Assembly: GCA_003221435.1 (NCBI GenBank) | Contig: QHRS01000091.1 | Coordinates: forward strand, 1 to 41,534 | Origin: Candidatus Rokuibacteriota bacterium | GTDB lineage: Bacteria; Methylomirabilota; Methylomirabilia; Rokubacteriales; CSP1-6 | Reading direction: 5' to 3' | DNA length: 41,534 nucleotides | Shown here: positions 23,529 through 24,410 of the stretch, piece after piece | Layout of the letters: each line of letters opens with the position of its first letter | How positions within the stretch are numbered: the stretch's first letter is position 1 | Notes under the pieces: generated by a model | Seen by the model: only the letters and a program-made list of their open reading frames with translations | Database searches by the model: none | What the model was told of the DNA's origin: nothing | Translations under genes and position numbers: made by a program

Positions 23529-23728
23529 TCACGATCAAGGCGCACACGGTGCGTCTGCTCTACAAGGCCGGCGACGGACAGGAGTACACGCTGAACCTGA
23601 TCGACACGCCGGGCCACGTGGACTTCTGGTACGAGGTGTCGCGCTCGCTCGCCGCGTGCGAGGGCGCGCTGCTGATCGTCGACGCCGCGCAGGGCGTCGA
23701 GGCCCAGACGCTCGCGAACTTCTACCTG
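23529..23728 (+). repeat. Inverted duplicate of lepA codons for ITIKAHTV...ANFYL (ectopic arm)
   Basis: Exact reverse complement of 24211..24410, verified base by base. The plus-strand ORF 23381..23959 therefore encodes the same 66 residues as the minus-strand lepA. Confidence 0.95.
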
Positions 23729-24210
23729 CGGAGTTGCTCGGTGATCGTCTCGCCGACCTTGGCGTCGGCGATCCGCTTCATCGACGCCGTGATGAACCCG
23801 ACCTGGCCCGCCGACAGCTCCTCGACCGGCCGCATGTCCGGCGAGAAGACGCCGACCTGCTGCACCTCGTACGACTTGCCGTTGGACATGAGCAGGATGC
23901 GCATGCCGGGCCGCACCCGGCCGTCGAACAGCCGCACGTACACGACGACGCCCTGGTAGGAGTCGTAGAACGAATCGAACACGAGCGCCTTCAACGGCGC
24001 CGCCGGATCGCCGGCCGGCGGCGGAATCCGGTGGATGATCGCCTCGAGGACCTCGGGGACGCCGGTGCCGTGCTTGGCCGACATCGCGAGCGCCCCGTCG
24101 CCGTCGAGGCCGAGCACGTCCGCGATCTGCCGGCGCGTGCCCTCGACGTCGGCGGAGGGCAGGTCGATCTTGTTGATGACCGGCACGATCGTGAGGTTTG
24201 CATCCGCCGC

Positions 24211-24410
24211 CAGGTAGAAGTTCGCGAGCGTCTGGGCCTCGACGCCCTGCGCGGCGTCGACGATCAGCAGCGCGCCCTCGCACGCGGCGAGCGAGCGCGA
24301 CACCTCGTACCAGAAGTCCACGTGGCCCGGCGTGTCGATCAGGTTCAGCGTGTACTCCTGTCCGTCGCCGGCCTTGTAGAGCAGACGCACCGTGTGCGCC
24401 TTGATCGTGA
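24211..24410 (-). repeat. Native lepA segment that is duplicated in inverted orientation at 23529..23728
   Basis: See the partner arm. The two arms are separated by 482 bp. Confidence 0.95.

Follow-up and report, generated by a model that had tools for sequence, protein, structure and literature searches.

In bacteria, template switching at quasipalindromes follows the Ripley model (cited in PMC7954356): the growing strand pairs with a short inverted homology, and the wrong strand is then copied. The classic cases perfect an existing near-palindrome and change few bases. MDA likewise produces inverted chimeras. Complex rearrangements have reportedly been assigned to FoSTeS/MMBIR by Hastings et al. 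in 2009; this class is known mainly from eukaryotes and acts at kilobase-to-megabase scale. FoSTeS/MMBIR and fold-back inverted duplications are primed by microhomology as well and combine inverted duplicated segments with deletions. Rearrangements of this class are also the subject of PMC3907307 and PMC7467729.

Short-range template switches have been formalized in a four-point model (Loytynoja & Goldman; Walker et al. 2021, PMC7954356). Its donor and acceptor sites are neighbours on one DNA, and the product consists of three colinear fragments with a single perfect inverted repeat. Alternate templates are sought within tens to hundreds of nucleotides, and the fragment order 3-2-1-4, which is one of the two majority patterns, yields a single inverted repeat (PMC7954356). 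Library preparation also makes inverted chimeric molecules at natural inverted repeats; in the PDSM model, a strand is joined to a nearby reverse complement at a short inverted repeat, and the resulting chimeric reads carry one join and have a low allele fraction (PMC10908179).

Here, we describe a rearranged lepA gene in a contig of Candidatus Rokuibacteriota. The whole 41,534-nt stretch that was analysed is referred to as the window, and lepA lies on its minus strand. We propose that the structure arose when a polymerase changed templates twice, in one local two-jump event on a single DNA molecule that carried lepA. We derived the anatomy of the junctions by alignment to the intact, 99.6% identical lepA of JGI contig Ga0066709_100103243 (L003), which encodes P0001, the best match to the reconstructed LepA. 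The features of the locus, in window coordinates, are as follows.

22166..22837, minus strand: lepB (signal peptidase I, 223 aa), which starts 2 nt past the lepA stop and shares its operon context.
22840..23538, minus strand: C-terminal part of lepA, native codons 365-596 plus the stop (domain V / EFG_C and LepA_C).
23529..23538: junction B, with the 10-nt microhomology TTGATCGTGA (coding strand).
23529..23728, plus strand: ectopic inverted arm, a copy of the lepA GTPase segment.
23722..23724, minus strand: premature TAG stop, two codons past junction A (..TEQLRR*).
23728..23729: junction A, where native codon 281 (L003 1316) is joined to the reverse complement of L003 833.
23728..24570, minus strand: N-terminal part of lepA, native codons 1-281 (GTPase domain and domain II), colinear with L003 474..1316.
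23729..24210, minus strand: spacer of 482 nt between the arms, native lepA in native orientation (end of the GTPase domain and domain II).
24211..24410, minus strand: source arm, the native GTPase-domain segment (..ITIKAHTV...LANFYL), equal to L003 634..833.

The two arms had been called exact reverse complements in an earlier note on this DNA, and our self-comparison of 24211..24410 with 23529..23728 gave an identity of 200/200. A repeat search of the window returned the pair as 206 nt at 99%, the arms being 482 nt apart. No other inverted repeat found there is as long: the pair is the sole one of more than 104 nt in the 41.5-kb window; the runner-up measures 104 nt at 82% and is a member of an unrelated intergenic repeat family. 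The arm pair is real and far beyond chance. The window contains no N characters, and its G+C content is uniform at approximately 70%. The source arm has its native context in L003 and in two further contigs, L004 and L005, which are described below, and the 482-nt spacer falls within an uninterrupted alignment of window 25043..23728 with L003 1..1316. Within the ectopic arm, 189 nt (23539..23727) are unambiguously copied, and position 23728 as well as positions 23529..23538 are common to the native flanks. The arm length of 200 nt is the sum of 1, 189 and 10 nt, and the round figure is coincidental. Because the ectopic arm is read in sense there, a plus-strand ORF at 23381..23959 matches GTP_EFTU (1e-18).

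In L003, an intact lepA of 596 codons is followed by lepB. The alignment of L003 1..1316 to window 25043..23728 has an identity of 99.62%, and L003 1566..3023 aligns to window 23538..22081 at 98.97%; only 3 of the 15 mismatches in this second block are located in lepA/lepB, the rest being in the lepB-hemN spacer. Native L003 1317..1565 is absent from the window lepA. This stretch of 249 nt comprises codons 282-364, that is, the domain II-III linker and domain III, and it is replaced by the 189 unambiguous nucleotides (23727..23539), which match L003 832..644 in reverse complement. Loss and gain add up to a net change of -60 nt, so the N- and C-terminal parts of lepA stay in one frame. The alignment thus agrees with the proposal of the earlier note that lepA is broken by a deletion and an inverted copy of its own GTPase segment, and the TAG that the note reported almost immediately on reading through from the N-terminal part is found at 23724..23722. 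Its figures had to be revised: 281 + 232 codons are retained instead of 276 + 229 aa, 83 codons (249 nt) are lost instead of about 95 residues, and the native protein has 596 aa where 600 or so had been assumed.

The predicted truncated product consists of 281 native residues followed by R. Both sets of LepA domains were recovered in the remaining parts. The 282-aa N-terminal fragment (ORF 23722..24570) matched the GTPase domain and domain II (Pfam GTP_EFTU PF00009, 3.6e-54; GTP_EFTU_D2 PF03144, 1.1e-13), and the C-terminal part (ORF 23547..22840) matched LepA_C (PF06421, 1.1e-52) and EFG_C (PF00679, 2.3e-19). A continuous LepA ORF of approximately 596 codons that includes domain III is absent from the window lepA. 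Because residues 282-364 are missing and a stop follows residue 281, the window copy cannot encode a full EF4. The rearrangement inactivates the window lepA and is itself neither functional nor conserved. The exact lepB product is present on four public contigs, where it is annotated as Peptidase_S26.

We characterized the two junctions by a three-way comparison. Junction A has an overlap of 1 nt (the C at 23728) and is effectively blunt. Longer microhomologies at this junction, based on TCCGC/CCGCC offsets, were considered and rejected, as no register reproduced the observed join. At junction B, TTGATCGTGA is common to the reverse complement of L003 634..643 and to native L003 1566..1575 (codons 365-368, L-I-V-T). 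Microhomology at one junction had been suspected before, correctly, but its length had been given as 7-8 nt; it is 10 nt and belongs to the C-side junction. The 10-nt inverted partners TCACGATCAA and TTGATCGTGA lie 922 nt apart. The null model consisted of two million inverted junctions drawn at random from the native lepA, among which a microhomology of at least 10 nt occurred with P = 7.7e-5 and one of at least 1 nt with P = 0.47. Because the former value applies to junction B, this join points to homology-driven strand annealing and not to a random join. A 10-nt junction microhomology thus separates annealing-driven from random joins, and a near-identical reference contig resolves such junctions to a single base.

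Compared to the intact gene, the window lepA consists of three fragments: L->1, which ends at L003 1316; 2->3, which runs from 833 to 634 and is inverted; and 4->R, which starts from 1566-1576. Their order is the 3-2-1-4 order of the four-point template-switch model. Donor and acceptor share a 1-kb stretch of one gene, and the sequence is colinear again beyond the rearrangement, which indicates one local event on one molecule. The template-switch or fold-back signature with junction microhomology that the earlier note had put forward is strengthened by this fragment order and by the 10-nt microhomology (P ~8e-5).

According to the mechanism that we propose, synthesis would run in the coding direction to L003 1316 and then leave its template. 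Approximately 190 nt would be copied backwards on the opposite-sense template, from L003 833 to 634, the copied strand being either the nascent one or, behind the fork, the template of the lagging strand. The return to the original template would occur at L003 1566 via the shared TTGATCGTGA, so that 1317..1565 would be skipped. A run in the reverse direction would be equivalent, with the 10-nt annealing starting the event and the blunt join ending it, and break repair with templated insertion would lead to the same product. The outcome is an inverted duplication of 190-200 nt together with a deletion of 249 nt, by which the linker and domain III are lost and LepA/EF4 is truncated after residue 281.

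The lepA locus has the same three colinear fragments and single perfect inverted repeat as the four-point template switches, and in both, donor and acceptor are close on the same DNA. Compared with the events in PMC7954356, the lepA case is larger, with approximately 190-200 nt copied, jumps of approximately 480 and 930 nt and 249 nt deleted, and it is known from a single metagenomic contig. The pair TCACGATCAA/TTGATCGTGA takes the part of the short inverted homology in the Ripley model; in contrast to the classic cases, however, the lepA event gave rise to a 200-nt repeat that did not exist before, along with a large deletion, and it has a second junction without homology. Whereas FoSTeS/MMBIR rearrangements are found mainly in eukaryotes and at far larger scale, the lepA event is confined to one 1.8-kb bacterial gene. 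Junction B looks exactly like the joins in library chimeras, but the lepA structure has two junctions and forms an assembled consensus. Finally, the N- and C-terminal parts in the window share 99.6-99.8% DNA identity with intact lepA of Rokubacteria, with the same four domains, whereas residues 282-364 of intact LepA/EF4 are missing from the window copy, which stops after residue 281.

The state of lepA before the event is documented in three contigs. These are L003 (99.6%), L005, which is another JGI contig (99.8%), and L004, the syntenic contig of GCA_030157145.1, whose intact 596-aa LepA is P0002. The alignment with L004, which is 94-96% identical, has the same two break points as that with L003, and L004 is otherwise colinear with the window over approximately 16 kb. 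L005 is 99.8% identical to window 23728..25889 and continues past the site of junction A with 245 nt of native domain III sequence (L003 1561..1317). Inverted repeats of at least 30 nt were found in none of the lepA genes of L003, L004, L005, L009 and L010, and those of L011 and L012 contain only weak 32-37-nt inverted pairs at chance level.

The same holds at the protein level. With the reconstructed LepA as query, thousands of LepA sequences were retrieved, the named ones of which come from Candidatus Rokubacteria, Rokuibacteriota or Methylomirabilota. The length was 596 aa in 110 of the 120 best matches listed and 584-918 aa in the remaining ten. None of the 120 closest homologues listed is substantially truncated, which indicates strong conservation of LepA in the phylum. 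The longest one, P0040 (918 aa), was called an NTP-transferase-LepA fusion. Another one, the 589-aa P0013, lacks seven linker residues (LRPAAVP, between TEQ and FPGY) exactly at the position of junction A, a gap from which it follows that the domain II-III linker tolerates indels.

A separate observation concerns a change from S to W at 24311, with its copy at 23628, in the otherwise invariant LepA motif DTPGHVDF[S/W]YEVSRS adjacent to switch II. The ectopic arm carries this SNP of the strain itself. We considered the change as a sign of decay or error and rejected that reading, as it is shared by the intact P0002 of GCA_030157145.1 and by L005; it is a natural variant of the lineage.

To judge from the sequence collections searched, the rearranged lepA is private to the window contig. 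We defined two junction 30-mers, GCGAACTTCTACCTGCGGAGTTGCTCGGTG and CGCTCGGCGCGGTCACGATCAAGGCGCACACGGT; the one across junction A had 0 matches in genome_contigs and 0 in metagenome_contigs. A strain-specific 30-mer with the W SNP had no match in genome_contigs, and in metagenome_contigs it matched L005 only, which is intact through junction A. Sequence look-ups with the exact truncated 282-aa LepA product and with the 356-aa NTP-transferase encoded next to it returned no record, and a search of 5.8 billion protein clusters with the N-terminal fragment returned no near-identical truncated LepA, the closest one listed being 91% identical. The exact hemN, lepB and epimerase products were found only on short contigs of other assemblies, none of which spans both junctions. 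Truncated lepA genes do occur on the long contigs L009-L012, in the form of adjacent split ORFs of the frameshift type. No inverted repeat like that of the window accompanies these breaks, and lepA is thus neither a hot spot nor a recurrent target. In several long 'contig_N' assemblies, lepA and its neighbours are split into adjacent ORFs, which has the look of frameshift-type assembly error.

We observed the geometry, the junction sequences and the ancestral state directly, and we infer the polymerase template switch and the place of the event, a cell or a library. How we divide belief between a real and a technical origin rests on priors; sequence alone cannot decide. We leaned towards a technical origin in the sense that the window contig represents a chimeric molecule or a minority or single-molecule variant and not the prevailing lepA of the organism, a reading that we hold at about even strength. 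If a pure assembler join is counted in addition, technical origins in total come out slightly above even.

A technical product is in line with the complete identity of the arms (100%), with the intact lepA in the closest relatives and with the very strong conservation of the gene. It is also in line with the known formation of inverted chimeras during library preparation (PMC10908179), and assemblers are known to report variants backed by few or single reads (10.1101/2025.04.22.649783). In addition, independent assemblies of the population break or become chimeric at lepA. L005 stops 20 nt past the last base that is specific to the strain, which is where a k = 21-type graph merge would end it; L002 changes inside domain III to sequence that is, by eye, roughly 85% identical; and the contigs L001, L006 and L007 all start inside the 3′ end of lepA. 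However, no de Bruijn k is nearly as small as the overlaps of 10 nt and 1 nt, so that an assembler could not have made up the junctions from clean reads, and molecules or reads bearing them must have existed. A technical product also needs two switches on one molecule or two independent chimeras at the same gene, as well as the loss of the native path, which would be uncommon. When two molecules from a soil library are joined, they nearly always come from unrelated genomes. The closeness of donor and acceptor therefore fits replication or repair in the cell at least equally well; it is also compatible with an intramolecular event in vitro. A dominant real allele would assemble identically, and elsewhere the window follows L004 cleanly and in the same order, with no sign of generally poor assembly.

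A genuine mutation in a recent ancestor of the sampled population, by a FoSTeS/MMBIR-like template switch at a fork or by break repair with templated insertion, is a candidate that we rate somewhat below even. The leading strand would have switched onto the lagging-strand template and back, and lepA would be a fresh pseudogene. Knock-outs of lepA are viable in E. coli under laboratory conditions, and its loss could be tolerated. The 3-2-1-4 geometry with the 10-nt microhomology argues for such a mutation, as do the location of donor and acceptor within 1 kb on one chromosome, as expected inside one fork, and the presence of the strain's own W SNP in the ectopic arm. The junctions must exist in sequenced molecules, the overlaps being too short for k-mer joins, and the remaining contig is colinear with its relatives. 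On the other hand, the closest relatives are intact, one of them with the same SNP; the 120 closest homologues listed all have a complete or almost complete LepA, with 110 at exactly 596 aa; and the allele was found nowhere else in the contig and protein-cluster searches. Because the arms show no divergence, any real event must have been very recent. The switch distances of approximately 480 and 930 nt and the 190-nt tract also greatly exceed those of classic quasipalindrome switches in bacteria.

An assembler could also have made the join in the absence of a physical chimeric molecule, for example by closing a gap on a 10-nt overlap. The minimal intersection accepted by the SPAdes gap closer is probably 10, the overlap at junction B is exactly 10 nt, and the region is a strain tangle in which other assemblies break. 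We nevertheless regard this origin as improbable, as the 1-nt overlap at junction A would be acceptable to no overlap-based closer, the arm end at L003 634 is no dead end but continues as native sequence in the contig, and the window has neither Ns nor other traces of scaffolding.

Tandem inversion duplications (TIDs) have been described in Salmonella. A forward-inverted-forward triplication of this kind, trimmed by two deletions, the second of them between 10-nt direct repeats, would show the observed order of forward, inverted and forward segments, and TTGATCGTGA would be a direct repeat able to mediate the deletion. A remodelled TID cannot be told from a template switch by the end product alone. 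We consider it very unlikely, however, as there is no duplicated forward segment, only a single extra inverted copy with a net loss of 60 nt, and three or four events would be needed compared to one two-jump switch.

Least credible of all is a programmed, inverton-like switch or a mobile-element insertion that regulates or splits lepA: although perfect inverted arms of 200 nt do flank a 482-nt segment, what was inserted is lepA's own coding sequence, which lacks terminal repeats, a target-site duplication and a transposase, the repeat is missing from every relative examined, and an inversion of the spacer would not bring back the 249 nt that were deleted. The list of genes and Pfam domains for the syntenic L004 locus, covering approximately 8 kb on either side, contained no recombinase or invertase; the neighbours there encode an NTP transferase, Trm112, epimerases, lepB, hemN, hrcA, grpE and dnaJ. 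The arms could flip and recombine physically, as the earlier note had suggested, whereas a programmed or conserved switch is contradicted by relatives that lack the repeat and by the lack of a nearby recombinase. An IS or MITE insertion was likewise rejected, given the exact lepA codons, a 249-nt deletion where a target-site duplication would be expected and the lack of another copy in the window. A deliberate or synthetic replacement of 200 nt is unlikely, as 189 nt are ectopic, 249 nt are deleted and 10 nt match the native flank.

The local two-jump template switch, wherever it took place, is a one-off event of a well-known kind and not a new biological system. Most likely, the organism has an intact EF4. 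In an annotation of the contig or of a MAG that contains it, lepA would appear as a pseudogene or as two fragments, and a universal marker gene would go missing; the main practical value of the observation is in quality control, as a flag for read-level validation of the contig. We give something under an even chance to the reading that the contig records a genuine and very recent template switch in the cells of a wild, uncultivated Rokubacteria population that knocked out the near-universally conserved EF4. If so, few template switches in bacteria would match its size, with a 190-nt inverted tract and a 249-nt deletion, and EF4 would be dispensable in situ in this lineage. The event would have left a perfect 200-nt inverted repeat able to flip the 482-nt spacer. 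It would then be a natural example of a large two-jump switch and of EF4 loss in the wild, though still a single mutation.

Apart from the lepA arms, the window contains a G+C-rich palindromic element of approximately 45 nt with the core TGGGGGAGGCTCGGAGGGGGCCGCCGAGGCCCCCTCCGATGG, which is present in four copies and in both orientations.

9483-9549: palindromic element, copy 1.
15088-15152: palindromic element, copy 2.
19113-19216: palindromic element, copy 3.
41395-41498: palindromic element, copy 4.

The core stem GGGGGCC/GGCCCCC was present in all four predicted DNA folds and was extended to approximately 12 bp in two copies. An Rfam scan of the window, with the palindromic element included, gave no match. 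The copy at approximately 19070-19165 lies within a stretch that does not align to the syntenic L004, and the element suggests a REP- or MITE-like mobile repeat.

Two further observations concern strain variation in and near lepA. JGI contig Ga0066710_100141713 (L002) looks like a strain chimera inside domain III of lepA. Its positions 1-241, which encode a P0035-like peptide, are by eye roughly 85% identical to the L003/L005 type, and blastn gave no match between L005 and L002; from the shared stretch CTCGAGCGCGAGTTCAACCTCTCGTTGATCGTGACC onward, the contig is approximately 99% identical to the window. The lepB-hemN spacer varies in length by strain, with roughly 90 extra nt in L002 and L003. 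In the window, this spacer contains an imperfect direct repeat (22018-22057 and 22117-22156, 78% identical at a spacing of 99 nt); the alignments of L002 and L003 to the window overlap over 22081..22166, and most of the L003 mismatches cluster in the spacer.
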